DNA of 64,000 nucleotides from Pseudomonadota bacterium (GCA_009922615.1 RFVF01000003.1:13069-77068), one strand, 5' to 3'; shown: positions 6,066 to 47,401, numbered from the stretch's first letter. Notes: generated by a model not told the origin, from the letters alone. Numbers and translations: made by a program.

Positions 6066-6139
6066 GGTTAGTGTTCTGAGTTGAGGACCGAATTACAATG
6101 GTGGGAACTGAGGACTGATGTGGATGGAGGCTAGTTGAG

Positions 6140-32038: not shown

Positions 32039-32044
32039 GATGGC

Positions 32045-32731
32045 TTAAAAGTTCACCAACCGCGCCGGCACGAACACCAGATCGCCGCTCTGCAACGGCA
32101 GGTCCTTGTCCATCTTGCCCTTCTCGATGATCTCCGACACATCCACGGTGAAGGTCTCCGGCTCCTGGCCGACGGCGCGTTTACGCGTGACCTTGACGTG
32201 CTTCTTGTCGGCAAAGTCCGTGAACCCGCCCGCGCGCAAGATCACCTTGGTGAGCGTGAGCGCTTCATCGCTGGGAATCTCCTGTGGCCCGGAAGTGCGA
32301 AGCTGGCCGACCAAATAGATTTTGCCGCGATTCTTGCTGAAGAGGTCCACGCCCAGAATCACGGTGGCCTTATAATAATATTTTTGTTCGAGCCGGGCTT
32401 TGATTTCCTTGGCCAACGATTGGCAGGTCTTGTCCGCCGCCGACACGCGCCCGATGTAGGGGACTTCCAATTCGCCGGTGTCCGAGATGGTCAGGGGGCG
32501 GGGTTCGTCCTTGTCCTCCACGATGCGAAAGCTCAGGCGGTCGCCGTTGGAGAGCTTTTGCTTGTCGTCCAGCGAGTCCATGTTGAACGAAGCAGTGGTC
32601 GAAGAGTCGTTGGTGCCCGCCGTCCCGTCCGCCGCGCGCAAAATCTCCCCCGAGATCAGGCAGCAGGCGAGCGTTCCCAGCCGCAGCCAGCGGGGACAGG
32701 CGAGGGCGGGTCGTGTCGTCGTTTTCATCAC
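32045..32731 (-). CDS. polysaccharide export protein (Wza-type, Poly_export + SLBB)
   Basis: NGDRLSFRIVEDKD...TISDTGELEVPYIGRV and LQSGDLVFVP match the Poly_export/SLBB pattern. Confidence 0.8.
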   Translation of the reverse strand: MMKTTTRPALACPRWLRLGTLACCLISGEILRAADGTAGTNDSSTTASFNMDSLDDKQKLSNGDRLSFRIVEDKDEPRPLTISDTGELEVPYIGRVSAADKTCQSLAKEIKARLEQKYYYKATVILGVDLFSKNRGKIYLVGQLRTSGPQEIPSDEALTLTKVILRAGGFTDFADKKHVKVTRKRAVGQEPETFTVDVSEIIEKGKMDKDLPLQSGDLVFVPARLVNF

Positions 32732-32815
32732 AGAACCGATACTGGCCCGCCTACGTGTCGGACAGATGACTGTTAGGTGTCGTTTCCGTGAAACGCGCTA
32801 AGATTCAAGTCGGCT

Positions 32816-34047
32816 TTAAAACCGGTAGCTCAAGTCCACTGTCACGCTGTTTTGCCGGTAGCTGCGCAGCGCGAGGTCGGAGTCCTTCAAGGTGAACGAG
32901 TAGCCGAGGCCGCCCCGCAGCCGCTCCGACAACTGCCGCGTTAAGGCGGCACCGCAGCCGAAGCGGTCGTAGCTTTCTCCGCCAGCCGCTTTCAATTCCC
33001 GACCGTTCTCGTAGAAGAAGCGCGGGCTCAACGAAGTCTGCTGCGTCACCTTGAAGTCCATCTGGTAACGCACCGACCACACTTCGATGACGTCGGAAGC
33101 GATCCCTTGTTGCAACTCCCGGCTCGCCCGCAAGGTGTGGCCGAACTCCTGCCCGAGCCGGTGTTCCGCTGACAAACCGAAGTAATACGATTGCTGGCTC
33201 GGTGTCTGCCCCACCGTGCCGCCGGAATCAAAATCGTAGAGGCTCAGGCCGGCCTCGGCGCTCACCTTGAGCCGCTGCGTCACGGCCAGCGCGGCATCCA
33301 AGCCCACGCTGTAGCGTCGTTGAGAAAATTCTGATCGTAGTGTGTGAACCCCGCCGTGGCCGAAAGACCGACGGAGAGAGTGCGGTTGAACTGTAACGTC
33401 CCGTGCGCGGCCACCGTCTCCGCCGCGTTATCGAGCTGCTCGAATTGCCGCGTGCTGCTCAGGAACGAGACGTGGTCATAACCTAGGCTCAGGATCAACT
33501 CGTTGAAATCGCCGATGAGCCGCGTTCCCGCGCGGTTGTTGAAGCCGCCGAAAGCCGCCGAGCCGCTGACGCTGCCGACTGCGACCGGGTCCTGCGTGTA
33601 GGAGAATTGATCGTGGAAGTTCAGCAGGAAGTCGCCGAGATACAGGTCCATCGCCAGCTCCGAGCCGGGCGTGATGAGCACCCGGTTGTATTCGGAATGC
33701 TGGACATAAAGCGCAGGGCTGACGCCGACCGAGAGGTTCAGCGAGTTGATCGTCGTGACTGGAAAGTAAGAGCGCAGTTGCACCTGCGGCCGAACGATCA
33801 AGTCCCGCTGCCGGCCCGTATCGGCGAGGTTGATGTTGTCGTTGGCTTCGAGGTTAAGGCCCGTTTCGATCTGCGCCTTCAGCCGCTCGTAACGGAAGCT
33901 ATACGGAGCAGCATCCAACGCCGCGCGCTTGGCCAGCGCGGATTCTTCACCGGCGATGGAGTAACGCGGTGCCTCCTGGGCCAACGCTGGTCCGGCCACT
34001 CCGCCGATAACTCCGAGAACAGCGGCTAGGTGCGACAACGGGCGCAT
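32816..34047 (-). pseudogene. outer-membrane beta-barrel protein of the EPS locus, split by a frameshift near 33307-33330
   Basis: ORF 33280..34308 (true start ATG 34047, MRPLSHLAAVLGVIGGVAGPALAQ) and ORF 32816..33307 are consecutive halves in different frames. Both show alternating beta-strand patterns. The second ends ...VTVDLSYRF, with the C-terminal aromatic residue typical of OMPs. Confidence 0.7.
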
Positions 34048-34306
34048 CCGGCTCGCGGGGGAAATTGCGCTGCCGATTTCAGGGTTCACGCTCAGGTAAT
34101 TTTTCACAATTGGGCTCAGAAAGAGTCCCCAAGCATCCCTCACTTTCTTCGCAGCGAACAAGCGACATTCCGGTGACGCCGTAGCCAACTTGTGACATTG
34201 CCCCGCTTTCACCGCACCTTGCGATGCGTTATATGAGCGGTTGTGTTCTGTCCGCGTTCCGTCGCCAACGCTCCCGTCGCCCACCCCGGCGGCGCGCTTT
34301 CCTGAC

Positions 34307-35698
34307 ATGGTTTCTCATCGCACCCGGGGCGTGTATTTGCTGTGCGTGTATGGGCATCTGCTGTTGTCGCAGGCTTGTTTCTGGATGCTGGCTGGCGTGT
34401 TTCACTTGAGCGGCATCATCACGCTGGTGGGTTCCGAAACGCCGCCGCATTTTCTCTACAGCGAAATTCTTTCCATCGGCGTGGTCTGGGCGATGACCTT
34501 CATCCGCGAGCGCAACCAGTTGATCACCTCCGACAGTCGTCTCGCCCATCACTTCGCGTTGAAACAAGTGGCGACTGCTTACGCCCTGCTGTTCCTCTAT
34601 CTGGCCGCCACGAAAGACACCGGCATCAGCCGGCTGTTAATGTTCTCGCTGCTTCCCGCGCTCTACCTCACGCTGCTGGTCGCCAACACCTGGTTGCCCG
34701 GCTTCATCAGCCGCCAGATGTTCCGCGGCGAACGCGCCGAACGAATTCTGCTTGCGGGCAGCAGCGCGAGCGCGCGGCGCTTGGACCAATGGCTCCAACG
34801 CAAAGGTCTGGTCGGCTACCAATCTATTGGGCGACTCGACGATTATCCCACCGGTCCCGAAGTGCTCGGACCGCTGGCCGATTTGGAAGCCGTCGTCCTC
34901 CGCCACCGCGTCACCCAACTCATCGTCACCGAGTTGGTCATGCCGACGGGCTTTCTCGCTGAAGCCACGGGCATTTGCGAGCGACACGGCATCCGCCTCC
35001 TAGCCGTCAGCGACGTGGACGATCAATTTCACCACCCGGTGATGCTGCTAGAAGACGACGGCGTGCGGTTTTTCACCTTGCGCGATGAACCATTGGAGAA
35101 CCCGCTCAACCGCATCTTTAAACGCGCCTTTGACATAGCCCTCGCCACGCCCGTGACCGTGCTTATTTTGCCCATCACCCACCTGCTGGTCTGGGGGCTG
35201 CAACGATGGCAGTCTCCCGGTCCCGTCTACTTCACCCAGACACGCGCCGGCATGAAAAACCGGCCCTTTACCATCTATAAATACCGCTCCATGCGGCTGG
35301 ACAACCCGGACGAAACCCGCCAAGCCACCATCAACGATGACCGCGTATTTCCGGCCGGGCGCTGGCTACGCAAACTGAGCTTGGACGAGCTGCCGCAATT
35401 CTACAACGTGCTGCGCGGCGACATGAGCGTCGTCGGACCGCGCCCGCACATGATCCAGCACAACGCCCTCTTCGCGCAGGCCCTGAAGAACTACCAAGTG
35501 CGCACCATCGCCAAGCCCGGTATCACCGGCCTGGCGCAAGTGCGCGGCCTGCGCGGCGAGACCAGCACCCCGGAAGCCATCGCCGCCCGCGTGACCGCCG
35601 ACGTGGAGTATCTCGAAAATTGGTCGTTCGCCGGCGACTGCCTGATCGTGCTGCGCACCTTCCTGCACATAGCCTCGCCCCCAAAGCGGGCCGTATAG
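34307..35698 (+). CDS. polyprenyl-phosphate hexose-1-phosphate transferase (WcaJ/EpsB-type priming sugar transferase)
   Basis: ORF 34241..35698, ATG 34307. TM N-terminus. KRAFDIALA, PGPVYFTQTRAGMKNRPFTIYKYRSM, DELPQFYNVLRGDMSVVGPRP and TGLAQV are canonical Bac_transf motifs. Confidence 0.9.
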   Translation: MVSHRTRGVYLLCVYGHLLLSQACFWMLAGVFHLSGIITLVGSETPPHFLYSEILSIGVVWAMTFIRERNQLITSDSRLAHHFALKQVATAYALLFLYLAATKDTGISRLLMFSLLPALYLTLLVANTWLPGFISRQMFRGERAERILLAGSSASARRLDQWLQRKGLVGYQSIGRLDDYPTGPEVLGPLADLEAVVLRHRVTQLIVTELVMPTGFLAEATGICERHGIRLLAVSDVDDQFHHPVMLLEDDGVRFFTLRDEPLENPLNRIFKRAFDIALATPVTVLILPITHLLVWGLQRWQSPGPVYFTQTRAGMKNRPFTIYKYRSMRLDNPDETRQATINDDRVFPAGRWLRKLSLDELPQFYNVLRGDMSVVGPRPHMIQHNALFAQALKNYQVRTIAKPGITGLAQVRGLRGETSTPEAIAARVTADVEYLENWSFAGDCLIVLRTFLHIASPPKRAV

Positions 35699-35968
35699 CT
35701 TGGACGCTCTCAAACTTCAGATCGCACCAGAGGAGCAGCGCACCCGCGAAAACCCGGCGGCTCGCACGACCGACCTGCTCAAGCAGGTCTTTGGCGCGGT
35801 CAAGAAGCAGTGAGCCGTCGCCGGACCTGCGATGCTGGAAAAGCTGCGGCGTGTTTGGGGCTACAAGGAGAGTAGTCTCTGCCGCCGCCCACCTCGCCCG
35901 GCCAACATCATCCACCCCACCATCTGAGCCTGGTCGTCGGCCGCTCCGCGTGCTAGGCTGCGACCACT

Positions 35969-36901
35969 ATGGATCAACAGAGAGTCCGCGAACTCGTTGC
36001 GCTGCTTCCGCCGGGCGCCACGTATCCCGCCCACCCGCGCCGCAGTCCTTTTCAAGCCCGTCCGAGCGCGTCCGAACGCTTCGCGCTGGCTCTGCATGAC
36101 CCGGCCTTCGGCTGGCACTTCGTTCAGGAGCACCTCCGGCTGCGGCGCTGGCTGCCCGACACCATCCACGAATGGGAACTGCTGCAATGCTTCCTGACGC
36201 AGTGGTTGAAAGTGACCGATCCGCTGATGCTGGAGGTCGAGTCCTTCCGCAGCGAAGTGCGCCGCCAAGAGCGGGATCTTTTGGAGGCGCTGCTGCTGGC
36301 CAGAAGCGTCACCCTGGGAGATATCGCTGGCCACCTGCACACCACCGAGGAAGTTGTCGAGGCGTATGCCTGCTTATTCTGGAACGTGCGCGACCGCCTC
36401 GACGAGCGCGGCTACCTCAACACGCTGCTCTACCCGGCCGGTTGGCAGGCCGCCATGCGCGACGCGCAACCCAATGCCATCGGCGACCGTCTCCGTCTGC
36501 TCCGGGCCGGCGCGCAGAACGACGTGGAGGAAGTCCTGGCCTTGGCGGGTTACCAGCCAGGCAGCAAAGGTGGGGTGTTGACCGAGGACAGCGGCGAGGT
36601 GGAACGGCGGATGCAACAGGACGCCCAGCGGCGGATGCGGGCTGGCTGTCGCATGGAGGATCAGGTTGTCCGCGCAGTTCATACGGCCGCCGTCCGGCGG
36701 AAGGAAATTGCCCTGACCGAGGACGAGTTGGCCTTGCACAAGATCAATGCCGTGTCGCCCGCCCTGGAAGAGATCAGAAAATACAACGGGTTAAAGGGGC
36801 TGCCACCGCCGGATTACCGCGAGCTCATCGGGCGTGCCCGGGCGAACGCGGCCCCGGTGATCCGGGAGCTGCTTCCCCACGGCGACGGGAGCGGAAACTG
36901 A
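35969..36901 (+). CDS. hypothetical protein (element-borne, the only plus-strand gene)
   Basis: 310-aa ORF with good coding-like composition. No family recognised. Confidence 0.55.
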   Translation: MDQQRVRELVALLPPGATYPAHPRRSPFQARPSASERFALALHDPAFGWHFVQEHLRLRRWLPDTIHEWELLQCFLTQWLKVTDPLMLEVESFRSEVRRQERDLLEALLLARSVTLGDIAGHLHTTEEVVEAYACLFWNVRDRLDERGYLNTLLYPAGWQAAMRDAQPNAIGDRLRLLRAGAQNDVEEVLALAGYQPGSKGGVLTEDSGEVERRMQQDAQRRMRAGCRMEDQVVRAVHTAAVRRKEIALTEDELALHKINAVSPALEEIRKYNGLKGLPPPDYRELIGRARANAAPVIRELLPHGDGSGN

Positions 36902-36921: not shown

Positions 36922-37407
36922 TCACTCCCCACCGACCGGACATTCCGGCGCGCTCGCAGAAAGCACAGGCGGCAGGCCGGTCAACGGCAGGTTCACTGGC
37001 AACAAATAATCATTGGTGACTAGCGCGTCTTCCGGCTCGGTTACCAGCTCCAGCCTCAGGCCATTCGCCGACGGCACCAATCGAATCGCTTGCTCCGCTG
37101 CAGGCGTGGCCACCGGCGTGGCCGGCGGCTCCGACTGCGGCTGCACGAGCTGCGCGAGGAACTGGTTCAACCCGCGCACGGCATCAGCTTCTGCGTCTTG
37201 GATGAGCCGATGTAACTGGCCGGGCAGCGACGCCAGGGCCGCAGGGCTGGCCGCAAAGGTCTGGTCGCGGCCGGCTTCAATGACACGCGCGCTCTTGCGC
37301 GCGTCCGCGAGGATGACCAACACGGAGATCGAGATTGGCCGGGAGTCATCCTCCCTTGGAGGCGTTTGTTCAGCGCCGTTTGAGCTTACGGAATTGGGTG
37401 TGTTCAT
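36922..37407 (-). CDS. hypothetical protein
   Basis: 161-aa ORF, last gene of the minus-strand element operon. No family recognised. Confidence 0.5.
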   Translation of the reverse strand: MNTPNSVSSNGAEQTPPREDDSRPISISVLVILADARKSARVIEAGRDQTFAASPAALASLPGQLHRLIQDAEADAVRGLNQFLAQLVQPQSEPPATPVATPAAEQAIRLVPSANGLRLELVTEPEDALVTNDYLLPVNLPLTGLPPVLSASAPECPVGGE

Positions 37408-37435
37408 AGTGTTGTCAGACTTGTCAGTTGAGGGG

Positions 37436-38748
37436 TCAGACCGTCACGAGTCGCCGAAGCTGGTGTTCTGCGAGCGAAAACATTCCGCCGGGCAGTTCGA
37501 CCACGAAGCCCTCCGCGACCAATCTTTCGAGAACGGGCCACCATCGGTCCGTTGATTGACCCGGCAGAGCACGGTAGAGAGTTCTAAAATCCACCTCACC
37601 CAACTGCTTGAGCTTGGCCAGCAGGCGCTGCCGGTCCGCCAGCTGCCCGGCTTCCCTGAGTTCACGTTCGGCGGCCTCGTGGAGGCCCAACATCGCGCGA
37701 CCGAAGCTGCGGGCGAGTGCAATGCCCGCCTGCGCATGGGTCGCCAGAAGCGGCTCCCCCACGTCATCACCTGCCAGATGCAGCACGAGAGCGAGGCGGC
37801 GGGCCATCGTTGGCCAGCCATAGACGACCGCCTCGACCGCCCAGGCCAGAGGGGGTCCGGCGCGAGCAGTTCCGTGTGGAACGCGTTGAAGAGTCGGCTG
37901 GCCTCGGGGCTGACCTTGACCCCCAGCGGAGACGGGTCACCACGCCGCGCAAAGACGCGGCGCAGCAAGTCGGCCCAGCGTTCGGCGAGGGCGGTTGGCA
38001 GTGTTGGGTCGGCTGGCCAGCGCGTCGGACGAGGGCCGGCGTCCACGACGAGAAACCGCGTGCTGAGGTCGGCGGAGAGTCCGGTGAGAAATTCCCTGCC
38101 AGCCGGCGCATCTGCCTGGGCTTCGATGAGCACGTTGACGACTTCCCGGCGAGGCACCCCCTGCTTCGGCACCTTCGCCCGTCCGGCGAGGAGTTGCTGG
38201 AAGATGCGCCACCGTGAACCATTGTTATCGGCTTGGAGGTCTGGCAAAAACCGCCCAAATGAGCCGGCGTCGAGCGCCACGAGCACCGAGCCATCGAAGC
38301 TACGGGGCAGCGCGGCTTGCAGCTCATCGAAGGTGGGCGCGGTCAGCAGCACCACGGGTTGCTGGCGTGCCCGGACCTCGGCCGGGTTGGTGTGACTGCC
38401 CGACAGTAGAAGTGATGGCGGCTCCTCGCCGGCCAGAGCCCACAGCTGGTTCTGCACCGCGACCAGCGGACCTAGGAGTGCCTGCCGTGCCAGCGCGACG
38501 GTGGAGCCGGGTGGGGTGACGACCAGCGCGCTCAGCTCCGCCGCCAGCGGCGCGGTGGCACCTTCCACCAGTTGTGCCGCCGGCCCTGTGGCCGCTGACA
38601 GCACTTGAAGCACGAGCGCGTTGCCTACCGGGACAGGCAGTTCGAGTCGGTCGTCCAGACAGCCGACGAGAGCGCCTAGGAGACCCGGCAGCGGTGCTGG
38701 GACGGCAGGCAGGTTGGCGGTCGCCACTGAGAGCGACGGGTTAATCAT
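37436..38748 (-). pseudogene. DUF3987 (YfjI)-like replication-associated protein, frame broken at a G-run near 37838-37843
   Basis: N-terminus LPAVPAPLPGLLGALVGCL...LELPVPVGNALVLQVLSAATG...LSALVVTPPGSTVAL fits the DUF3987 pattern. After ...ELLAPDPLWPG the 434-aa ORF turns to junk, while the other frame continues AVEAVVYGWPTMARRLALVLHLAGDD... (ORF 37436..37807). Confidence 0.6.
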
Positions 38749-39121
38749 GCGCCCCCTCCGCGCCCTGCGTCGGGGCGTCCGGTTTCACCCCGCGGTTGTG
38801 CTGGTGCACCGCACGAAGGTGCAGAACCATGGCCGCTTCCAGGAGCCCAGGGGAGTGCTGGCTTTCGGCCACGCAGGCCAACAGGGTCCCCACGGCCTTC
38901 AGCGTGGCGAGGCCCGGCGGCTGAGGGTCCGTCGGTGGGCTCGGGGCTGCGGCGCCCTGAGCCGGGCGGCGCGTCGCATGCAGCCGGGCAAAGGCATCGA
39001 GCAGCGATGCGACCACGGTCGGCCACTCAGGATACGGGAGGGTTTCGTTGGGTGCTGGCCCCACGGCGGGGGGTGATGCGTGGTTGTCGTCGACGTGGGA
39101 GTTAGATTTCGGCGGTGTCAT
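38741..39121 (-). CDS. hypothetical protein
   Basis: 126-aa ORF with an 8-nt overlap onto the downstream DUF3987-like gene. Confidence 0.5.
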   Translation of the reverse strand: MTPPKSNSHVDDNHASPPAVGPAPNETLPYPEWPTVVASLLDAFARLHATRRPAQGAAAPSPPTDPQPPGLATLKAVGTLLACVAESQHSPGLLEAAMVLHLRAVHQHNRGVKPDAPTQGAEGAHD

Positions 39122-39176
39122 TTGTAGGGTTGAAGCCCCCTGCCGCCCAGATAAACCGGGCGGCAGGAAGCATGGT

Positions 39177-40538
39177 TCAGGTGTTTGCCTTCAGAGCCTG
39201 GAGCGCCGGGACTGAGAACGGGTCCGCCGGCAATGCTGGTGGTGTCCACGCGGCTCGTTCCACTCCGGGCCATTCACTGATTCGTGACCACCAGCCGCCG
39301 AGCCAGACCCGATGTTCAGCATAGGCGATGGCGCTCAGGCGATTAAGTTCGGCCCGCTGCTCAAGCGTCAGCTTTACGCCGGGATGATGGCGTTTCCATG
39401 CGGCCTTTCGGATCTCGTGGAAGCAATTCTCCGATTTGAGATCGGCGTCGGGCCACAGGTGCAGCTTGCTCTCCAAGCCGAGTTCCTGGGCCAGCCGCTG
39501 CACCATCCGCAGCGAGTCCATCGCGTAGGCGCGCCAGTCGTTGCGGGTGGCAAAGACGGCCGTGTTGACGATCTGGCCTTCGGCCGCGGCGTGTCTGGCA
39601 ATCCGTTCGATGTTGTCAGCGCGAACATTGACCGGCTCGGCGTAGATGGTGAACGGGTTGAGCGCCTTGACGGCCGTCAGTGTGGCGCGGACGTCGGCCT
39701 CGTCGCACTCGGCATAGGTGGGCGCAACCGCCACAAAGATGTTAAGATCCTGATCCCGGGCCGCCTGCAACGTGGCCAGCCGCTGCGTCGGTGCCGGCGC
39801 ATTCGGCTCGTAGATGCGAGCGAGCTGATTGTTCAACGTCGGCAAGCTCATCCCGAACATCAGCCGGTTGCCGAACGACTTGAACAAGTCGAAGTCCTGC
39901 CGGGCGAGCGGACTGCGCGTCAGAATCCGCACGTTCAACGTCGAGTGATCCCGGATCAGCTCCAGGATTCGCCGCACCATGTGGGCGCGCTCCGCGTTCA
40001 GCCGCTTTTGCAGCGCCTTGTCCGGCGCGGTGATAGTCTGATAGGGATCCGTCGTGGTGCAGAGCATCACGGCCCGGTTGCCGTCCAAGCTCAATTCACT
40101 CAAGGGACGATTCTCCGCTGCCTGGATGTCCTTCATGACCCGTCCTTCGTCGAACGGGCGAAGGAGCACGTAGTCGCCCCACTGGGCACCGGGGTCCTCA
40201 ACGCCGTAGCGTTTCTTCAGCACGGGTTTGAGGAACTTCGTGGATACCGCCGGCACGTAGCAGAATTCGCAGCTGTGGCCGCAGCCAAGGGAGATGTTGC
40301 ACTTCCAGTCAGAAAGGCTCTTGAACTTGAAATGGTTGAGCTCAATCCGAACTGGCTTGTGCCAGAAGTCCACCATGGCGGCTGGAGCTGCTGGTGTAGC
40401 GGCGAGAGGCTTCATGGTGCCCAACGCGATCGACTTTTCGTGCGCCTGTCTCAACGCCGCCGTAACGAGGTTGTTGGCGGCGTGGATGTTGTTGGCCGAT
40501 TCGGCCGCGGGGTTTACAAGGGTCACTTGCATAGTCAT
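39177..40538 (-). CDS. radical SAM protein, SplB/COG1533 (DNA-repair-photolyase-like) type with N- and C-terminal extensions
   Basis: NISLGCGHSCEFCYVP contains CxxxCxxC in the GC-x-H-x-C-x-x-CY context typical of spore-photoproduct-lyase-like enzymes. Confidence 0.7.
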   Translation of the reverse strand: MTMQVTLVNPAAESANNIHAANNLVTAALRQAHEKSIALGTMKPLAATPAAPAAMVDFWHKPVRIELNHFKFKSLSDWKCNISLGCGHSCEFCYVPAVSTKFLKPVLKKRYGVEDPGAQWGDYVLLRPFDEGRVMKDIQAAENRPLSELSLDGNRAVMLCTTTDPYQTITAPDKALQKRLNAERAHMVRRILELIRDHSTLNVRILTRSPLARQDFDLFKSFGNRLMFGMSLPTLNNQLARIYEPNAPAPTQRLATLQAARDQDLNIFVAVAPTYAECDEADVRATLTAVKALNPFTIYAEPVNVRADNIERIARHAAAEGQIVNTAVFATRNDWRAYAMDSLRMVQRLAQELGLESKLHLWPDADLKSENCFHEIRKAAWKRHHPGVKLTLEQRAELNRLSAIAYAEHRVWLGGWWSRISEWPGVERAAWTPPALPADPFSVPALQALKANT

Positions 40539-40556
40539 GTTTGGGTAGAGAAGTGA

Positions 40557-41222
40557 TCAGGCAGCTGCCGACAGGGATTGTTCGCCCGTGCTGTCAGGCA
40601 CCGCGCGTGTGTGGAGAAACAAAGAGTCGGATCCGACGGCGGCTTCGACGGCGCTGAAGAGCGCCTCGAACTCTTCCGAGTCCCAGTAGTGCTCGATCAA
40701 GTCGAGGGCCAGCGAGCCAAGCCGGGTGGTGAGCTCGTGCAATTCGCAGAGGCTGACGGTGCCAGGTTGCTGATTGTGCCGGTCCATCAACCGGTCATGC
40801 TCGGCCTCAAGGAACGCCGCCTCGTCAGCCTGCTCCTCAACATATTCACGAACGTCGGGCTCGGCGGCGCAAGGCAGGCTGAGATCCACGGCGCGAAAGT
40901 GCGCGATGAGCGAGCCGCGCAAGATTCTCCAAAGTGCGCGAACGTGCTTGGGGTCAACGTGGCCGGAATTGAATCCCGCGCGGACAGCGAGGCAGACGCC
41001 CAGCTCTTTGTGTGCACTGTGGAGCAAGCTGATGGCGTGTGCGTAGGCATCCTTCAGCGTGGCGTCGGCCGACAGAGGCGGAGCGCCCTCAGGCTGCCGG
41101 GCGCTATGATACAAGTCGAGGTCAGATGCCCGACTCCAACCGGGAGGGTTGGCGATGTTGATGAAGCCCGGCGGCAAGGCCGCGAGCGCTGCGTTTTGAT
41201 CTGTCATACTGCTGGTTTGCAT
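40557..41222 (-). CDS. hypothetical protein
   Basis: ORF 40557..41417. The upstream part overlaps the polymerase gene, so ATG 41222 (MQTSSMTDQN) is the likely start. It is preceded by an A-rich leader. Confidence 0.5.
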   Translation of the reverse strand: MQTSSMTDQNAALAALPPGFINIANPPGWSRASDLDLYHSARQPEGAPPLSADATLKDAYAHAISLLHSAHKELGVCLAVRAGFNSGHVDPKHVRALWRILRGSLIAHFRAVDLSLPCAAEPDVREYVEEQADEAAFLEAEHDRLMDRHNQQPGTVSLCELHELTTRLGSLALDLIEHYWDSEEFEALFSAVEAAVGSDSLFLHTRAVPDSTGEQSLSAAA

Positions 41223-41367
41223 GTTTTTTTTCTGTTGTTTTACCGAACTTCCCTCCGCAGCCAGGCCGACAGGCCCGGTTGAACTGCGGAGAAATTGGTG
41301 ACCGGAAGGGTAGGCAGGCTGGAATCGGCGCATGCCAAAAGGAGCGCGTTGAGAGTGGTGATGGGAA

Positions 41368-43758
41368 TCATAGGGTGGGGAACTTTCCAGGTTTGTGGAG
41401 GAGCAGCAGTTCAGCACGGAAGCCGGGGAACCGATCGGTGATGACCTTGATGAACTGCAACACCGCAGGCGTCGTGGCGACGGAGTGTTCGATCAGTTTC
41501 GAAGCAGGGCGCTGGGCGTTCTCCACATCCTCGCGGCGACACGGATAGCCGGAGGCAGTGAGCCACTCCGCCAGTTCCGGGTAGTTCATGACGCGGGAAT
41601 CCAGCCCCCAACGGTTGCGCACAAAGGCGCGGAGGAACATGCGCAGCGCCACCTTGGAGGCACCCCTCGGCGCGGTGGTCCTCACAGCGCGGCCGGGCGG
41701 TGTGGCGCAGAAGGCGCGGAAGTCCGCGAGGTCCCCGACGGTCTTCAACACGCGCTGGCGGCGGAACACCTCCCAGTGAGCGCGGCACTCTAGGAACGCC
41801 TCGACGTTGGGCCAAGGCCGGGACTCGAAGGCAAGGTGAGGAATCTCGCGGATGTCCCGCATGCATTCGCCGACAGGTTCGCGCTTGAAGTCGTAGTCGA
41901 GGCTGGCGCGGCGCTCCACGGGCACGGCGACCAGGTCGCCGCCATGACGGTGCAGGTCCTGGAGCGAACGCAACTGCGAGTAGGTGACCTTGCTGTCAGC
42001 GTCGCGGCGGACGAACTGGTCGATCAGCCAATCATTATGCAGCGCCTTGTCCTTAATGGGCGGCTTGATGCCGGCCTTGGCTAAGACAATTGGCTCGCCG
42101 GCAAGGGGAACGAGAGTTGCCTGGCCCCGGGTGCGAATGCCCAAGGGTTGAGCGATCCGGTGCTTGATGTCGTAAATATTCGGGTCGCCAGTGAGGCGCT
42201 GGCGGGCGAGGGAGTAGGCTCGGCAGAGCTCACCCTGTGTGACGGCACCGATGTCGGCCTCCGTCGCGGTGCTGAGGAAACCGTCGGTCGTGGCGCTGCA
42301 CACCACGACGTGTGGTGGCAGCGCGTTGAGCATTTCACCCATAACACCCCGGATGAAGGAGGTGATCCACGCCGCGAAGAAAGGATTTGAGATGCGCCCG
42401 GGACGAAGCCACTGCAGCTGTCCAGTCCGGGAATCGAAGGCGCGTTTGGGGCGCGTGCCCTGCGCAAGGCGGCCGTAGGTGGAATTGGCCAGTTCCTTCC
42501 AAAGCGCGTTCTTGACGTCGCCCTTGGGGAACTGACTCCGGCGGCGGGTGCATTCCCGCACGAACAGCTCAAAGGGCCTGATGCTGTCGTCCACCGGCAG
42601 CACCACGCCGTGGAGGATTTCAAGGTGCGCCCCCAGCTTGCGGGCCAAGCAGATCTCCGGAGAGCAACAAAAGGAAGTGCCGGACAAAGGGAACAAAGGA
42701 CCGTGCTCGGTCGCAACCGGAAGGCAGGGGTAGCGCGTGCCGGGTGGAAAGCGGAAGCGGACGTGGGCAAAGCCCAGGGTGAGTGGGCCGTAGTCGTCGA
42801 GGTTCGTGGAGCTGCGCAGCCGCTCCCAGTCGGGCATGCCGATGAGAGACATGGCCACCGAGTAGGCACCGGCCAAGTCCACGTCGAGCCAGGTGCCCAT
42901 AGGACCTGCACCGAAGAGGAACTGCACGTTCAGTCCGCCGTGGAAACACTCGGTGGCCAAGGTCTCGAACAGGTGGCGTGACGCCTCCGGCCTGACTGAC
43001 TTGCGCGGCAGGAGCCGACCTTTCGCAGGATTCCACGCCCGCTCAACTAACTCCTCGATGCCGAGCACCTGCTGGCGAGAGACCCCCTTGCTCTCCCAGA
43101 GCCCGAGGAGGAAGGCCTCACCGAGACCAGACAACGTCACCGGCACTTCGGCCCTGCCGGTCAACCCCTCATTGAGCTGAAGGAGCTGCAGGGCGTGAGC
43201 GACGCAGATCGTCGGGTCTTGGCGAGCGTAACGATCGAATAGTTCGGGATCACGCTCCAGCGGCTCAGCCATGCGCTCAATCTGGCCGTCGGACAACTCA
43301 ACCCTGGGCTCACCAAGCAGGGCACCGAGTGAGTCCAAAGACTTGGAGCCGCCCGGCGTCAGCAGCAGCGTGTCCCGGAGCGTGACGGCGATGACATGGC
43401 GATGCTTGCTGGAGTCGTGGACCGGCACCTTGAGCGGATGCTGCAGGGTCACGTAGGTGTTCCTGATCGAGCTGAACTGGAGCTGGAGCTTGGGGAAGTC
43501 CGCCAGCATGGCGAGGTCCGACAAGGTCCAGTGCCCGACCAGAGTCAGGGCCTTGGGCCACCGCCGCAGATGTCCTGCCTTCCGCCCTGCCTCGATGATG
43601 TGACGAAGGAGAGAGGCTAGGGTGAGGCGCTTGCCGTCCTGACAGTAGATGACACCGGACCAGGAGGGCCCGCCTAGCAATTGGCCGTGGAACGAATAGC
43701 AGAGTGCCCGGTTAAGCGAGGCGTCCTGTTTGTCCCACTCGCAGTCGAAGCCCACCAC
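41368..43758 (-). CDS. family-B DNA polymerase of the primer-independent (piPolB) type
   Basis: ExoI VGFDCEW at residues 2-8. ExoIII YARQD. Motif A DVDLAGAYS. Motif B KELANSTYG (KxxxNSxYG). Motif C SATTDGF (TTD instead of DTD). Also KH..(8)..RTRG. 796 aa. Confidence 0.8.
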   Translation of the reverse strand: MVGFDCEWDKQDASLNRALCYSFHGQLLGGPSWSGVIYCQDGKRLTLASLLRHIIEAGRKAGHLRRWPKALTLVGHWTLSDLAMLADFPKLQLQFSSIRNTYVTLQHPLKVPVHDSSKHRHVIAVTLRDTLLLTPGGSKSLDSLGALLGEPRVELSDGQIERMAEPLERDPELFDRYARQDPTICVAHALQLLQLNEGLTGRAEVPVTLSGLGEAFLLGLWESKGVSRQQVLGIEELVERAWNPAKGRLLPRKSVRPEASRHLFETLATECFHGGLNVQFLFGAGPMGTWLDVDLAGAYSVAMSLIGMPDWERLRSSTNLDDYGPLTLGFAHVRFRFPPGTRYPCLPVATEHGPLFPLSGTSFCCSPEICLARKLGAHLEILHGVVLPVDDSIRPFELFVRECTRRRSQFPKGDVKNALWKELANSTYGRLAQGTRPKRAFDSRTGQLQWLRPGRISNPFFAAWITSFIRGVMGEMLNALPPHVVVCSATTDGFLSTATEADIGAVTQGELCRAYSLARQRLTGDPNIYDIKHRIAQPLGIRTRGQATLVPLAGEPIVLAKAGIKPPIKDKALHNDWLIDQFVRRDADSKVTYSQLRSLQDLHRHGGDLVAVPVERRASLDYDFKREPVGECMRDIREIPHLAFESRPWPNVEAFLECRAHWEVFRRQRVLKTVGDLADFRAFCATPPGRAVRTTAPRGASKVALRMFLRAFVRNRWGLDSRVMNYPELAEWLTASGYPCRREDVENAQRPASKLIEHSVATTPAVLQFIKVITDRFPGFRAELLLLHKPGKFPTL

Positions 43759-43808
43759 TATGATAGGTGCCCGGATAGATGTCCGGCGATGTCGCGGTGG
43801 AATTCAAG

Positions 43809-44042
43809 TCAGGCATTGTGTCCTCCGTCGTCATGAACTTCCGGCTCCTCGCCGCGTTTGAGGCGCTCGTAGGCGTCAATCGCGGACTGGTAGTCGTAGA
43901 GCGATTCGCGGCCTGGCTTCCCTTGGCGAACGGTCTTGATCCAGCCGGCCTTGATCAGCTGGCCAGCGAGCGTCTTCGAACCGAATAGCCGGTTCAGGTC
44001 GCGGCGGTTCACCATGAACGGTGTGGTAGTCGTGGGGCTCAT
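43809..44042 (-). CDS. small DNA-binding protein, excisionase/AlpA-like (putative)
   Basis: 77 aa, 4-nt overlap with the upstream xis-like gene. FMVNRRDLNRLFGSKTLAGQLIKAGWIKTV resembles a winged-helix excisionase fold. Confidence 0.45.
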   Translation of the reverse strand: MSPTTTTPFMVNRRDLNRLFGSKTLAGQLIKAGWIKTVRQGKPGRESLYDYQSAIDAYERLKRGEEPEVHDDGGHNA

Positions 44043-44332
44043 TCGCCGCCCTCCTGCTGACCTGCCTCAGCATCGGACCGAGGCGTTAGTGACCCGTCGA
44101 TGAGCGGGTTCGCCACCTGCGCGAGTTCACCTCGCTCGGCACGCTCGATGAAGCGCTGAAGCTCATGGTCGGTTATGTAAAGTCTGCCGGCAATCCGGAT
44201 GGGTTTGATCCAACCGCGCTGAACCCAGCGCCAGCCGGTGACACGGGATCGCCCCAACTCGTCCAAGAAATCCGAAAAAGATTTCACGCGCGGCTGTTGC
44301 GCCGGCCTTTGTTCGCTTTCATTTCGTTGCAC
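44039..44332 (-). CDS. excisionase-family HTH (HTH_17/MerR-like) protein
   Basis: FLDELGRSRVTGWRWVQRGWIKPIRIAGRLYITDHELQRFI matches the excisionase-type HTH pattern. Confidence 0.6.
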   Translation of the reverse strand: MQRNESEQRPAQQPRVKSFSDFLDELGRSRVTGWRWVQRGWIKPIRIAGRLYITDHELQRFIERAERGELAQVANPLIDGSLTPRSDAEAGQQEGGE

Positions 44333-44344
44333 GAGTGGGCCGAC

Positions 44345-44700
44345 GACGCCCCATTTGCGGTTCGTTACTCGGCTAATTTTACGTTTTGCGGCCGAAGTCC
44401 CTAATCGGTCGTTCCGCTTCTCGTGAACCCGGCAAACCCCTGCTCCACCTCATCGAGTCACAGGCAACAAAGGGAGATGGCATCCGCGATTTTGATGACG
44501 GCCCGCAGATTGGCTCCACTCTGCCGACGATGCCGCCGAAGAGTTTGGCGGCGTCGAGTTTCAGCAACGGGATGTTTAAGGCGTCAGCAGTGGCCTTGGC
44601 GGTGAGCGACTTGCCGGTGCTGAGGGTGCCGGCGATCCGCAGACTTTGCGGGAGCGGGCAGCCCCGGTCCTATTTGAGGAATCGGGGGGGGCAGTTTCGC
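44345..44700 (-). pseudogene. degraded AAA+ ATPase remnant
   Basis: Minus-strand translation across frames gives ...LRIAGTLSTGKSLTAKATADALNIPLLKLDAAKLFGGIVG / SGANLRAVIKIADAISLCCL*LDEVEQGFAGFTRSGTTD*... This is a Walker A, LFGGIVGESE-type box and Walker B with one frameshift and two in-frame stops, truncated by the xis-like gene. A G8 tract lies at 44684-44691. Confidence 0.65.
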
Positions 44701-44883
44701 AATCCGCGCCCTTGAAACTGACGCTCTCGATGTGGATGTCACCCATGAGTGACACGGTGATTTCGACGGTGGGTTTAATAGGGAGGCGAGGACGATTCGG
44801 CTCAACTGTGCGGAAGAGGCTCAGGGACCGGTTAGAATGAGGGTCAACTGGCAGCGCCTCACATCCGGTGGCGGGATCGCCGA

Positions 44884-45864
44884 CTATGCCAGACACCCGG
44901 GAACACGCAAAACCTCCCGCTCAATCATTTGTTCTGCCGGGTCTGCGGGCGTGCCTTCAGGCCGGGGCAGGTCCAAGTGCAAACGACCGGACCTCGGCAC
45001 GGTGATTTGCTGCGGAGATAAAGGCTCCAACACCCAGGGTGGAGCGAACGAGAAGCACCAGGCGTCGCGCATTCTGATCATCATGTCCAAGGCTGAATTC
45101 TTGAGCCTCATCCAATTGGAAGAATTTGGCCTGAGGGTTCCGGTGGCTTTCTGAACCTTGATCAAATCGCCGGCAAAATAGACCGAGAGTCTCAGGACAG
45201 ACAATTCGTTCATCCGGCTGTAGATAACCCCTGGATTCTCCCGCTTGCCAACGCCGCGACGATTGTGCGTCACGGCGGTCGGATCCCAGGGCGGATTACC
45301 CCGGAGTTCTGCTTTGACGTGCTGTCGGACCTTTTCCGCATGCAAGGTTTTTAGCTGCTCACGCCGCCGCGTCACAATTTGGGCCAGCCGCCGCAAAATC
45401 TGTTTGTCCGTGCGATGAAAGTTGATCCGGACGAACAGATCAGCGGCGTCACCCAGGTCCGCCGGATCATGATCGCAGTCACCCACGGCGGTGCGGTAAG
45501 TGTAAATGTCCAGATCAATCTCCTGCACGGTTTTCTGATCAAACAGTGACGTGTGCTCATTAATTCCCACCTTGCGCAGTCGCGCTCTGCGTTCGGTTTC
45601 GGGTATCGCAAGCCAAGGGTGCGCCGGAAATTCGGGGAAATGCTTGACGAGGAAGGTGGCGAACCGGGGCGGGTTTCGCCGCTCCACAGGCAACTCACCC
45701 TCTTGGCGAGGTGTGGGCTTCTTGTCCGATCGTAACTCCAGCACCCACTTCACCATGGGGCGATAAGAGCGGGCAAACTCGTAGTTGAGCCAGCCGTTCA
45801 GTTCCCAGTCGGCCAAGACCTTTTGCGCCCGGGTCGGCCATTTCCATTCGTTGTCATTTAGCAT
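44884..45864 (-). CDS. hypothetical protein (element-borne, lower GC)
   Basis: ORF 44884..45912 (TTG). The first in-frame ATG is at 45864 (MLNDNEWKW). No family recognised. Confidence 0.55.
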   Translation of the reverse strand: MLNDNEWKWPTRAQKVLADWELNGWLNYEFARSYRPMVKWVLELRSDKKPTPRQEGELPVERRNPPRFATFLVKHFPEFPAHPWLAIPETERRARLRKVGINEHTSLFDQKTVQEIDLDIYTYRTAVGDCDHDPADLGDAADLFVRINFHRTDKQILRRLAQIVTRRREQLKTLHAEKVRQHVKAELRGNPPWDPTAVTHNRRGVGKRENPGVIYSRMNELSVLRLSVYFAGDLIKVQKATGTLRPNSSNWMRLKNSALDMMIRMRDAWCFSFAPPWVLEPLSPQQITVPRSGRLHLDLPRPEGTPADPAEQMIEREVLRVPGCLA

Positions 45865-45898
45865 GATGGGGATCCCTCTGCGTGGGGTGCTTGGCTTT

Positions 45899-47137
45899 TC
45901 ATTTGAACTCAATCCGTTGCGCCTGCTTTTTGGTGTGTTCGTCGTTCAAATGACCATAAACTTTGCCGATTAACACCCCGCCATCCCTGTGGCCGACCCA
46001 TTTGGCGATGGTCATGAAGTCGACGCCCGACATGACGCACATGGAAATGAAAAAATGGCGGCAGTCGTGAAAGCCAAACGCTGGCAGACCAGCCGCGGCA
46101 CGGGCCAGTCGGAGTGACTCGCGGAAGGATTTGGCGCGCTCGTCCCGCGCGCCGCGTTGGGGCGAAGGGAAAAGCCACTCGGAGTCCGGGGCGCGACGTG
46201 ACTCCATATCACGGAGATGAGCCTTGAGCCGGGGATTGAAATCCACCACGCGGGTCTGGCCATTCTTGGTCAGCTTGTCCGTGCCAATCTGAAGCTGCTC
46301 CGTGGTCCAGTGCACGTCGCTCCATTTGAGCCGCAGGGTTTCACTCATGCGGGAACCGCACCGCGCCAGCAGGCGCACGAAGTCGGCGAATTGCTGCGCG
46401 TTTTTTAGGGGCACACCCGGTTCGCCGGACTTGGCCAGCTTCCCACCGGCAAAGACGGGACGAAAGCCGGCCGCGCAGATCGCCTCCACTTGGGCGTCGG
46501 TGAAGAGTGCGCGTTGGTGGGGTTTGCATTTGAGCGGCTTGTGGTCGCCGATCGTGACCGCTTTGAGCAGCCCTTCCTTCACGGCGCGGTGGAGCACATT
46601 GCGCAGGCAGATCACTTCCAGGTTCACGGTGCGCGGAGCCGCCCCGGCCGCCTGTCGCTGGGCGATGAACTGGTCAACCATCTTCGAAGTGAGGCGATGC
46701 AGACGCACGCCGCCCAGCTGTTTCAGCCAATGGCTCAGGTGGGCGCGTTCCGAATTCAACGTGCTCGGTCGTTTCTCGTGCATGGCCTGCTCGTAGTGGG
46801 CGAAATACTGCGGGACATACTCGCTCAATTTGGGCGTCTGGCCCAGGGTGGGCAGGCTCCGGTCCTCCCGCTGGATGAGCAACCGGCGCAGCGCGGCTTG
46901 GGCTTCGGCGTCCGTGCCGGCTTTCTCCAGCGGGACGCGGAGCACTTTGGCGATGCCCGTGCCGGGATTTTGAACGGCCACGCGGGCATAGTAGCGCCCG
47001 TTGCGCACCCAGAGTCCGCGCACGGGACGCTTGCGGGCGTCGTGCACCTTTTGATACGTTCCGCGACGAGATGGGCGCTTGCCTTCGATGTTGTCGGCCG
47101 GGGCGCCGGGATTTCCCGGCGTTGCATCACGTTGCAT
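45899..47137 (-). CDS. tyrosine-type site-specific integrase
   Basis: ORF 45899..47173, ATG at 47137. ARCGSRMSETLRLKW (Arg I), FGFHDCRHFF (H-x-x-R) and HRDGGVLIGKVYGHL (catalytic Tyr region). Confidence 0.9.
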   Translation of the reverse strand: MQRDATPGNPGAPADNIEGKRPSRRGTYQKVHDARKRPVRGLWVRNGRYYARVAVQNPGTGIAKVLRVPLEKAGTDAEAQAALRRLLIQREDRSLPTLGQTPKLSEYVPQYFAHYEQAMHEKRPSTLNSERAHLSHWLKQLGGVRLHRLTSKMVDQFIAQRQAAGAAPRTVNLEVICLRNVLHRAVKEGLLKAVTIGDHKPLKCKPHQRALFTDAQVEAICAAGFRPVFAGGKLAKSGEPGVPLKNAQQFADFVRLLARCGSRMSETLRLKWSDVHWTTEQLQIGTDKLTKNGQTRVVDFNPRLKAHLRDMESRRAPDSEWLFPSPQRGARDERAKSFRESLRLARAAAGLPAFGFHDCRHFFISMCVMSGVDFMTIAKWVGHRDGGVLIGKVYGHLNDEHTKKQAQRIEFK

Positions 47138-47217
47138 GGCGTTACAGTGGCACAAAAAGTGGCACAACGTCAAACGATGTGGCTGAATTCATGTGCAAGT
47201 TGTTCATAATCAACAGT

Positions 47218-47301
47218 GGGCACGTGGCGGAATGGCAGACGCGCTGGACTTAGGATCCAGTGGAGCAATCCGTGCAGGTTCAAGTCCTGTCGTGCCCACC
47301 A
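47218..47301 (+). tRNA. tRNA-Leu (anticodon UAG), class II with a long variable arm and encoded CCA
   Basis: Manual fold: acceptor GGGCACG/CGTGCCC, anticodon stem CTGGA/TCCAG with loop CTTAGGA, variable arm tGGAgcaaTCCgt, T-arm GCAGG-TTCAAGT-CCTGT, then A-CCA. Confidence 0.9.
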
Positions 47302-47401
47302 AATCACCGTCAGTTCACCGCATCGCCGCCTCCCGACACCTGCAGAACCCGGCCCAAAAAGATTCGCTCCGCAAGGCCCCGCTCACTACAACAGCGCCCC
47401 G

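Follow-up and report, generated by a model that had tools for sequence, protein, structure and literature searches.

What is a radical SAM (rSAM) enzyme doing among the genes that follow a piPolB polymerase? The question is raised by an island of ~11 kb in the window, the 64,000-nucleotide stretch of DNA analysed here. The island adjoins a tRNA-Leu and comprises an integrase, HTH genes and piPolB, then the five genes in question, and last a convergent gene of 310 aa. The answer put forward, tentatively, is a composite one: a conserved element core accompanied by a swappable rSAM enzyme, for which radical chemistry on DNA is proposed, in a copy that is probably impaired.

Table 1. Features of the island, with positions counted from the first letter of the window
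Feature	Position	Strand	Evidence or remark
tRNA-Leu	47218..47301	+	flanks island; ARAGORN; Rfam tRNA, 60 bits
Tyrosine recombinase (integrase)	45899..47173	-	PF00589, 67.8 bits
342-aa gene between integrase and HTH genes	44884..45912	-	ORF
Two small HTH/excisionase-like genes upstream of piPolB	43809..44332 (77 aa, 43809-44042; 97 aa, 44039-44332)	-	phrog_66 excisionase/regulator, E 3e-7
piPolB, 796-aa ORF	41368..43758	-	tblastn, PF03175 homologues and motif
p222	40557..41222	-	ORF and orthologues; element-specific family
Radical SAM enzyme, 453 aa	39177..40538	-	SPL/COG1533 type
p126	38741..39121	-	ORF and orthologues
DUF3987-family gene	37436..38748 (ORF as written, 37444-38748)	-	frameshifted
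p161	36922..37407	-	ORF and orthologues
p310, convergent, ends island	35969..36901	+	conserved with module; beyond the region of the first-pass annotation

The integrase (PF00589) lies 44 nt from the tRNA-Leu, a pipolin-type placement of recombinase and tRNA. The 342-aa gene next to it has no family match in Pfam, NCBIfam, phrog or PADLOC, and an identical copy is present in the sibling copy L030. The 77-aa HTH gene keeps its place beside piPolB in L116-L121. The piPolB ORF matches the pSE-12228-03 polymerase and Fusobacterium plasmids by tblastn, and its homologues in Methylobacterium, Vibrio and Enterobacter carry PF03175. It contains YDIKHRIAQPLGIRTRGQ, which reads KH-X8-RTRG, the first position of KTRG being changed from K to R; replacement of the KxY of PolB by KH-X8-KTRG defines piPolB (PMC5695915). 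By motif and homology the island thus encodes a piPolB, as pipolins do. Comparison of the tRNA side with the far end gave no att-like direct repeats of ≥11 nt and no ungapped match scoring ≥10, therefore the island borders are approximate.

The first-pass annotation described five closely packed genes on one strand after the polymerase. All five minus-strand ORFs are present and each has conserved orthologues (37-85% identity, E-values 1e-17 to 0) in independent contigs, so they are not chance ORFs of GC-rich DNA. The gaps of 18 nt (40539-40556) and 55 nt (39122-39176) and the 8-nt overlap (38741-38748) are as described; the 28-nt gap holds only if the DUF3987 gene stops at 37436, a stop that belongs to another reading frame. 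If p222 begins at ATG 41222, its probable start, 145 nt separate the module from the piPolB stop; the open frame reaches GTG 41417.

The 453-aa enzyme contains the GCGHSCEFCY motif on which it had been recognised. Its cluster cysteines C86, C90 and C93 (CxxxCxxC, [4Fe-4S]) are invariant in 31 family members (alignment A1). The Pfam Radical_SAM score (PF04055) is 24.6 bits, below the gathering threshold of 29.5; homologues carry precomputed PF04055 matches. An AF2 model (pLDDT 85, pTM 0.83) gave 35 PDB matches at E <= 1e-3, all those listed being radical SAM enzymes, and it shows the partial TIM-barrel fold of the solved members. The top matches are the spore photoproduct lyase (SPL) structures 4FHF and 4FHC (E 3e-8, TMq 0.45, TMt 0.58, ~327 aligned columns), followed by peptide-modifying rSAMs. 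As judged from the model, the likeness to SPL is at the fold level only, with 12% identity. At the sequence level SPL models are absent among the NCBIfam matches at E <= 0.01, phmmer against PDB sequences found nothing, and the rSAM profile matches SPL at E ~0.8. By sequence score the enzyme falls below the threshold of every curated model: Rv2578c, 47.8 against a cut-off of 430; PA0069, 46.4 against 360; mob_pairB (rSAM mobile pair B), 35.1 against 410. The best fold match and these weak COG1533-type matches agree with its earlier assignment as an SPL/COG1533-type protein. Extensions of ~100 aa had been noted at both ends. At the N-terminus residues 1-55 are clade-specific, with low model confidence; the C-terminal ~130 aa form a helical region that is conserved throughout the family and is not an add-on. 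SPL has a Tyr relay and an H-donor Cys (C140/C141, SPL numbering). In the window enzyme the residue following the third Cys, Tyr94, hardly varies, and the position of the other SPL Tyr is taken by Phe92. A trimmed rSAM profile did not recover SPL, so the position of the catalytic H-donor Cys was not mapped.

More than 1,618 homologues of the enzyme were found, mostly in Verrucomicrobiota, and databases name them "SPL family radical SAM" or "DNA repair photolyase". The co-occurrence of the enzyme with piPolB or DUF3987 that had been envisaged never recurs across this wider family. The only recurrent neighbour is TcmP, whose methyltransferase-like character was read from motifs by eye; it directly precedes the rSAM in 19 of the 55 locus groups (37 loci by HMM), and the relatives directly downstream of it are 50-56% identical to the window enzyme. 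Other neighbours are DNA methylases, ParB, AAA_25, AlkB-like proteins, LexA and Zeta toxin. Such neighbourhoods bear out a mobile or defence-island setting for the family, not a housekeeping one. In RadicalSAM.org, SPL and DUF5131 both fall in Megacluster-5, and hhalign weakly aligns their Cys motif and two more motifs.

A true DNA repair lyase, reversing thymine-dimer-type lesions in the manner of SPL and, together with piPolB, providing damage tolerance to element or host, is an unlikely reading of the enzyme. SPL is the best fold match, and a LexA-family gene is divergent from TcmP-rSAM at three family loci, with a conserved palindrome between them; AlkB-like neighbours occur at two. The palindrome, however, is missing from the window, neither the SPL equivalog nor SPL sequences gave a match, and the SPL catalytic Cys could not be mapped onto the window enzyme. 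The spore photoproduct arises as a lesion in the DNA of dry spores, and the hosts of these elements are not known to sporulate. TcmP, the usual partner, is not obviously needed by a repair lyase. The literature adds two points in favour: SOS regulation has been reported for COG1533 "SplB" genes in several phyla (PMC8565304), and piPolB raises survival after UV or mitomycin C, though it cannot copy a T:T dimer template (PMC5695915).

As the first-pass annotation anticipated, the window neighbours recur in sibling elements. The window-type neighbourhood is confined to a narrow clade of seven element lineages in Verrucomicrobiota, several of them on short contigs, and the argument about the enzyme slot is drawn from these seven. 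Four have piPolB and at least one has a Prim-Pol primase. L117 and L116 keep the gene order with diverged piPolBs (64% and 60% identity, respectively). L003 and L001 keep it with different replication genes: in L003 a Prim-Pol gene lies upstream of the module, and in L001 one of the upstream genes has a weak DUF5906 (D5-like) match. L015 starts with a 722-aa ORF that by eye resembles the L003 Prim-Pol. No piPolB relative was seen on the available contigs of L001, L003, L015/L017 and L020. The enzyme slot itself varies. In L116 a DUF5131 gene (288 bits) sits precisely between p222 and p126, in the place of the rSAM. In L121 (piPolB 73% identity) DUF3987 comes straight after p222, and the enzyme is missing from between them; the L121 contig ends right after DUF3987, therefore an rSAM may still lie elsewhere in that element.

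The possibility that the five genes and the polymerase form one obligatory replication unit, with the rSAM required for copying of the element to begin or to finish, is quite unlikely. The tight, operon-like spacing, the order kept in L117 and L116, and the lack of other helicase or origin-binding candidates in the element (Pfam, NCBIfam) would suit it. Set against these are the missing enzyme in L121, the use of DUF5131 in L116, the Prim-Pol of L003, the contigs of L001, L015/L017 and L020, on which no piPolB relative was seen, and the close rSAM relatives in L006, L016 and L028, which have no DUF3987 nearby. The earlier picture of five genes acting as a unit tied to the polymerase was therefore given up on both counts. 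Because the rSAM slot is swapped (L116) or empty (L121) and the replicase varies, p222, DUF3987, p161 and p310 look like the element core, and the rSAM, in many cases together with p126, resembles an exchangeable insert, as judged from synteny.

The p222, p126 and p161 proteins belong to no recognisable family (Pfam, NCBIfam, phrog, PADLOC), as first reported, and the same four resources gave no family match for p310. p222 is helical and represents an element-specific family with only 19 representatives among 1.84 billion proteins. Orthologues or paralogues are found in L001, L015, L017, L020, L116, L117 and L121 (alignment A4), with one to three paralogous copies around the enzyme slot in siblings. 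A relationship of p222 to TcmP was ruled out (hhalign probability 0.3%). p126 has two conserved motifs, PYPEWP..V.DSLLDAF and GLLEAVM.LHLRAV, with a Pro-rich linker between them. In L001 and L003 its orthologues (47-51% identity) come after the rSAM, and in L116 after DUF5131; L020, L117 and L121 lack it, so that it is a frequent, non-obligate companion of the enzyme slot. p161, whose N-terminal ~90 aa are conserved and whose tail is of low complexity, always comes after DUF3987 (orthologues in L001, L003, L020, L116 and L117). p310 keeps its convergent position in L001, L003, L116 and L117 (58-72% identity), and L015 and L017 have weaker relatives of it upstream of their rSAM genes.

The recognition of the large neighbour as a DUF3987-family, helicase-like protein is supported by PF13148 scores of orthologues and by Foldseek matches to MCM. 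Its 434-aa ORF is frameshifted by loss of one G from a GGGG run at ~37841-37844. The true C-terminus (~135 aa) is in the frame of ORF 37436-37807, so the tail as written is out of frame. The same frameshifted tail is found in the NCBI MAG (P0122); another sample (P0121) has an intact 437-aa copy, 99% identical. As written, the window ORF has no Pfam match. The repaired protein scores 25.0 bits against PF13148 (GA 27) and orthologues 40.2, 29.4 and 27.2 bits, in an alignment that covers only the C-terminal third of the Pfam profile. The best Foldseek matches of its AF2 model (pLDDT 70) are MCM subunits (E 2e-5 to 1e-3, TM 0.35-0.46). In the model a beta-strand, a loop and a helix stand where the P-loop would be, and the C-terminus forms a winged helix; together these features suggest, at this low TM and model confidence, an MCM-like AAA+ core fold. 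The lysine of Walker A (GxxxxGK[ST]) is absent from all eight orthologues compared (39-99% identity); the P-loop position reads (P/A)(P/A)GS(T/V/M).

piPolB is also damaged. Relative to L030 its 5' end is truncated by a 170-nt out-of-frame deletion with the junction at ~43782-43788; the full-length form has 880 aa. A restart would be possible at a GTG four residues before the ExoI motif. With these two lesions, both missed by the first-pass annotation, the window copy is probably impaired. L030 in turn has a nonsense codon in p222. These defects, with the frameshift seen in the NCBI MAG record as well, and the att repeats not found would fit a decaying remnant whose module is non-functional, a reading that is nevertheless very unlikely. 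The rSAM, p126, p161 and p222 ORFs are intact in the window. The rSAM is essentially identical across four samples (1 nt difference), next to polB and p222 that differ by 5-7%. Errors of assembly or minority variants could account for the lesions, and piPolB could use the GTG.

Defence or anti-defence cargo, made up of the rSAM with p126 and possibly DUF3987 and serving to block phages or to protect incoming element DNA from restriction, is a rather unlikely alternative. Pipolins carry exchangeable defence cargo distal to the integrase (PMC11551731), which is where the rSAM region lies, and in more distant piPolB relatives that place is taken by R-M and HipA genes. The family neighbours include DNA methylases and Zeta toxin, and the enzyme is swappable or absent among siblings. 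On the other hand PADLOC was negative for all five proteins, the block has no nuclease or obvious effector, and p222, DUF3987, p161 and p310 are much more conserved than typical cargo.

The composite reading could work as follows. p222, DUF3987, p161 and p310 would constitute the maintenance core of the element, in which the DUF3987 protein, having no Walker A lysine, would serve as a DNA-binding or loading scaffold and not as a motor. Across the siblings the slot between p222 and DUF3987 is occupied by an SPL-like rSAM or by DUF5131, from a related subgroup of radical SAM proteins, or stands empty, and p126 often follows it. The rSAM would be an exchangeable accessory, which its near-identity across samples beside more divergent polB and p222 would suit, and elsewhere the same kind of enzyme appears to travel as a two-gene TcmP-rSAM cassette. 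TcmP (TIGR04474) is absent from the window and from every element of its clade, therefore what is inferred from TcmP cassettes may not transfer. Using its [4Fe-4S] cluster and SAM, the enzyme may modify bases or reverse lesions on DNA, and such chemistry might benefit element or host. Radical chemistry on DNA, whether modification or repair, is the predicted role that we favour, in view of the SPL fold match, the DNA methylases, ParB, AAA_25, AlkB-like proteins and LexA near members of the wider family, and the reported SOS regulation of COG1533 genes; the original proposal of DNA repair or modification coupled to replication is a reasonable guess at that role.

Compared with known systems, the island shares with pipolins (E. 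coli pipolin, pSE-12228-03) a piPolB with KH-X8-(K/R)TRG, a tyrosine recombinase, a tRNA-adjacent position and small HTH genes. It differs in having no detected flanking direct repeats, in distal genes that are conserved across siblings where those of pipolins are variable defence cargo, and in at least one sibling element with Prim-Pol instead of piPolB. The main text of the 2024 pipolin survey does not mention Verrucomicrobiota, rSAM or DUF3987 (PMC11551731). With DUF3987 (PF13148) and MCM-type AAA+ proteins the large neighbour has in common the Pfam match of its orthologues (27-40 bits) and the modelled strand-loop-helix and winged helix; low TM values, the missing Walker A lysine (8/8) and the frameshift of the window copy set it apart. 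TcmP, or three-Cys-motif, pairs (TIGR04474; DUF5131/Gp37-Gp68, PF07505) are similar in that relatives of the window enzyme lie directly downstream of TcmP, and in that DUF5131, presumably the usual TcmP partner, takes the rSAM place in L116 and shares Megacluster-5 with SPL. The neighbours of the window enzyme, p222 and p126, are however unrelated to TcmP, and the literature naming the pair makes passing mentions with no function found. From SPL (SplB; PDB 4FHC-4FHG) the window enzyme differs by additional helices behind the cluster loop and a long, conserved subdomain of helices at its C-terminus, by its 12% identity with neither an SPL sequence match nor a curated SPL-type model at threshold, and by being encoded on mobile elements of presumably non-sporulating Verrucomicrobiota. 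It shares with SPL the CxxxCxxC cluster motif followed by Tyr, and SPL is its best structural match.

The five minus-strand ORFs that the first-pass annotation had described as a module downstream of the polymerase are present where it placed them, and their spacing was borne out at three junctions, with gaps of 18 and 55 nt and an overlap of 8 nt. The fourth spacing, of 28 nt, requires the large DUF3987-like gene to stop at 37436, and that stop lies in a different reading frame. Orthologues of all five ORFs were found in independent contigs; they are genes, not random open frames of GC-rich DNA. The proteins p222, p126, p161 and p310, named by their lengths, have no match in PADLOC, PHROGs, Pfam or NCBIfam. 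The genes belong to a pipolin-like island of about 11 kb, in the order tRNA-Leu, tyrosine recombinase, a 342-aa gene, two small HTH/excisionase-like genes, the polymerase, the five genes and p310.

Coordinates of the five ORFs and the flanking features of the island in the window
Feature	Position	Strand	Remark
p310, convergent 310-aa gene	35969-36901		island end
p161	36922-37407	minus	ORF
DUF3987-like, 434 aa as written	37444-38748	minus	ORF
p126	38741-39121	minus	ORF
radical SAM protein (rSAM), 453 aa	39177-40538	minus	ORF
p222	40557-41222	minus	ORF; open frame runs to GTG 41417
tRNA-Leu	47218-47301		island flank

The integrase is on the 5' side of the tRNA and its transcription is directed away from it (window 47150-47420). 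Exact k-mers, ungapped extension and a repeat search revealed no att-like repeats at the island ends, and no direct repeat common to 47150-47420 and 35600-36000 was found. The tRNA was the sole Rfam match, and promoter and terminator scans gave no signal above that of shuffled sequence. The left flank (29936-35698) is, by eye, what we take to be a polysaccharide export/synthesis cluster, its genes presumably encoding a 700-aa chain-length/tyrosine-kinase-like protein, a 228-aa export protein and a 485-aa sugar transferase.

The island polymerase matches those of the pipolin plasmid pSE-12228-03 and of Fusobacterium plasmids, and its PF03175-bearing relatives are found in Methylobacterium, Vibrio, Enterobacter and Plesiomonas. 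It contains KH-X8-RTRG, the piPolB signature motif as described in PMC5695915, and is a piPolB. Compared with the 880-aa form encoded by L030, a contig with the same element from another sample, 170 nt are lost near the 5' end of the window gene (junction 43782-43788). The deletion takes out the N-terminal linker and shifts the frame, and the window piPolB is a 796-aa ORF that restarts four residues ahead of the ExoI motif. In another NCBI MAG this polymerase is annotated only as a 502-aa fragment (P0138).

The DUF3987 gene is also damaged. Three-frame translation and DNA alignment to an orthologue showed a 1-nt deletion. An intact copy of 437 aa with 99% identity (P0121, Logan-assembled from another sample) reads LWPGAVEAVV at the frame shift; thus the window has lost one G from a GGGG run at about 37841-37844. 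The last ~135 aa of the window protein are out of frame, and an NCBI MAG protein (P0122) has an identical shifted tail. When repaired, the protein reaches 25 bits with PF13148, for which the threshold is 27, and its orthologues reach 27-40 bits, with the alignment confined to the final third of the profile. AF2 modelling of the intact protein (pLDDT 70) gave a strand, loop and helix at the would-be P-loop and a C-terminal winged helix; in Foldseek, MCM subunits came out as the best matches, at low TM-scores. At the P-loop position, eight orthologues of 39-99% identity read (P/A)(P/A)GS(T/V/M), with the Lys absent. From this we infer a role in DNA binding or loading without normal ATP hydrolysis.

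A third lesion is found in p222, whose L030 orthologue (6186-6860) has an in-frame stop, CAA*PDV in place of the window's CAAEPDV; the p222 of contig L032 is intact. Taken with the DUF3987 frameshift and the piPolB deletion, this nonsense codon means that different copies bear different lesions. Over window 38700-47247, the integrase-to-HTH and rSAM-to-p126 segments differ from L030 by 0-2 nt per gene. The two genes between them diverge by 5-7%, with 113 nt differences in polB (synonymous in 61 codons, non-synonymous in 32) and 49 in p222 (synonymous in 20 codons, non-synonymous in 20). Such mosaic divergence suggests that the polB-p222 segment was replaced by recombination.

The proposal that the five genes form one unit did not survive comparison with sibling elements, in which the enzyme slot is swapped or empty. 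In L117 the piPolB, 64% identical to that of the window, is followed by two copies of p222, an rSAM (84%), a 185-aa gene, another p222, DUF3987, p161 and p310. L116 (piPolB 60% identical) has the same frame with DUF5131, a three-Cys-motif enzyme, between p222 and p126; this gene (4924-5694; PF07505, 288 bits) takes the exact position of the rSAM resembling spore photoproduct lyase (SPL). L121 (piPolB 73% identical) has a 120-aa gene, p222 and then DUF3987 directly (5485-7569), with neither rSAM nor p126, and the contig stops after DUF3987. Three further elements with piPolB of 48-49% identity (L118, L119, L120) have none of the module genes and carry R-M and HipA-type cargo. The block is kept in L001, L003 and L020, with no piPolB relative on the contigs examined. 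In L003 a Prim-Pol gene (31 bits) lies upstream of it; L001 carries a 311-aa gene without family match, along with one of 431 aa that weakly matches DUF5906. L015 and L017 have p222 and p310 relatives upstream of the rSAM, and L015 begins with a 722-aa ORF that by eye resembles the L003 Prim-Pol.

Across these siblings p222, DUF3987, p161 and p310 are retained regardless of the upstream replication genes, the enzyme slot holds the SPL-like rSAM, DUF5131 or nothing, and four of the six enzyme-carrying lineages have p126 after the enzyme. Because one set is retained and the slot varies, we read the four genes as the probable core of the element; the enzyme, whether or not p126 goes with it, would be an exchangeable accessory. 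The p222 family is tiny: a search of 1.84 billion proteins yielded 19 representatives. RadicalSAM.org assigns SPL to the same megacluster as DUF5131 and MJ0683-like proteins (PMC9477430), and hhalign of the rSAM family against the L116 DUF5131 gave a weak match (E 0.021) that aligned the Cys motif and two further motifs.

For the wider family, 115 loci encoding rSAM relatives were fetched and surveyed by tblastn and HMM. The family is not tied to piPolB, which occurs in L030 only; DUF3987, p222, p126, p161 and p310 are restricted to close rSAM relatives of 58-85% identity. Clustering of flanking ORFs gave a single recurrent neighbour, a gene of ~285 aa that directly precedes the rSAM gene in the same orientation in 19 of the 55 locus groups with sufficient upstream sequence. 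It encodes TcmP (TIGR04474, 134-186 bits, cut-off 53), whose usual partner is DUF5131. HMM search found TcmP in 37 loci, none with DUF3987 or p222, and there the TcmP gene is closely paired with that of the SPL-like rSAM in a cassette of two genes with gaps of -3 to 45 nt (for example L085:9053-11131 and L099:5981-7987) and no consistent third gene beside it. The enzyme of the island, with or without p126, would by analogy be the counterpart of these cassettes. The idea that p222 is a diverged TcmP was ruled out (hhalign probability 0.3%). TcmP and DUF5131 are mentioned only in passing in the literature.

Other neighbours in the wider family are AAA_25 helicase-like proteins, DNA methylases, ParB, integrases, AlkB-like oxygenases, Zeta toxin and LexA. 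A housekeeping context for the enzyme had been the alternative; the diversity of neighbours shows instead that the family resides in mobile and defence-island-like DNA with no fixed housekeeping locus. Single MAGs have two to four separate rSAM copies on different contigs (L012 with L020; L015, L017, L028, L029), which is consistent with multi-copy mobile elements.

The enzyme itself falls slightly short of the Pfam Radical_SAM threshold (24.6 bits against 29.5), and its NCBIfam matches (Rv2578c, PA0069, "mobile pair B") are weak and far under the cut-offs. It has more than 1,618 homologues, most with ~55% identity across ~82% of the length; the few with a named source are from Verrucomicrobiota, and labels include "SPL family radical SAM" and "DNA repair photolyase". 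An alignment of 31 members shows no variation at C86, C90 and C93 or in many further motifs up to residue ~425. Of the two ~100-aa extensions described earlier, the N-terminal one stands for its first ~55 residues, which are clade-specific; the C-terminal one is part of the family fold because the invariant motifs reach that far. The AF2 model (pLDDT 85, pTM 0.83) has SPL structures as its top PDB fold matches (E 3e-8, TM 0.45/0.58), followed by other radical SAM enzymes; a viral fold library gave generic rSAM matches only. PDB sequence and profile searches returned no significant match for rSAM, piPolB or DUF3987. Mapping of the SPL catalytic Cys with a trimmed rSAM profile was also tried; it recovered lipoyl synthase and not SPL. 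The rSAM family is a new subfamily of SPL-like radical SAM enzymes.

The function tentatively favoured for the enzyme is radical chemistry on a putative DNA substrate, either modification or lesion reversal. The SPL fold match counts in favour of DNA, as do the methylase and AlkB-like neighbours, the tie to replication genes and the reported SOS regulation of COG1533 "SplB" genes (PMC8565304). In addition, L057, L076 and L100 have a LexA-family gene transcribed divergently from the TcmP-rSAM operon, and in these three loci only, a conserved 20-nt palindrome, TACTATCCAnATGGATAGTA, lies at the lexA start (L057:2292-2311, L076:961-980, L100:467-486); this arrangement also argues for DNA. The window does not contain the palindrome, which is unlike the LexA box of Verrucomicrobia, TGTTC-N4-GAACA. 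That box has no exact match in the window, nor any with one mismatch allowed in the island and the three LexA-adjacent loci. Alternatively, the enzyme may have a defence or anti-defence role, which fits the pipolin model in which the region distal to the integrase holds exchangeable defence cargo (PMC11551731), although PADLOC gave no match at all. If DNA is the substrate, SPL-like and DUF5131 enzymes, with or without TcmP, could make a widespread radical-derived DNA mark of mobile elements; here an MCM-like DUF3987 protein devoid of ATPase activity would take part in making or reading the mark, separating element from host DNA for replication or restriction escape. This broader scheme is improbable as it stands.

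No paper tying piPolB or pipolins to radical SAM, DUF3987 or Verrucomicrobia was found; the pipolin-type element of the window has an undescribed core, and such elements are now extended to Verrucomicrobiota. The non-polymerase core stays constant as the replicase changes, which bears on how these elements are constructed. The main appeal of the element is that the role of the enzyme can be tested with naturally occurring swap and loss variants; in practical terms it narrows the question to a single enzyme with two candidate partners, for which there are natural variants that have another enzyme in its place or none. The SPL-like family with its >1,600 members, DUF5131 and TcmP are all found on mobile elements and in defence-island-like neighbourhoods, and action of the enzyme on DNA would give these three large groups their first function. 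The known system that the enzyme most resembles is SPL, and the likeness is at the level of the fold, with 12% identity.
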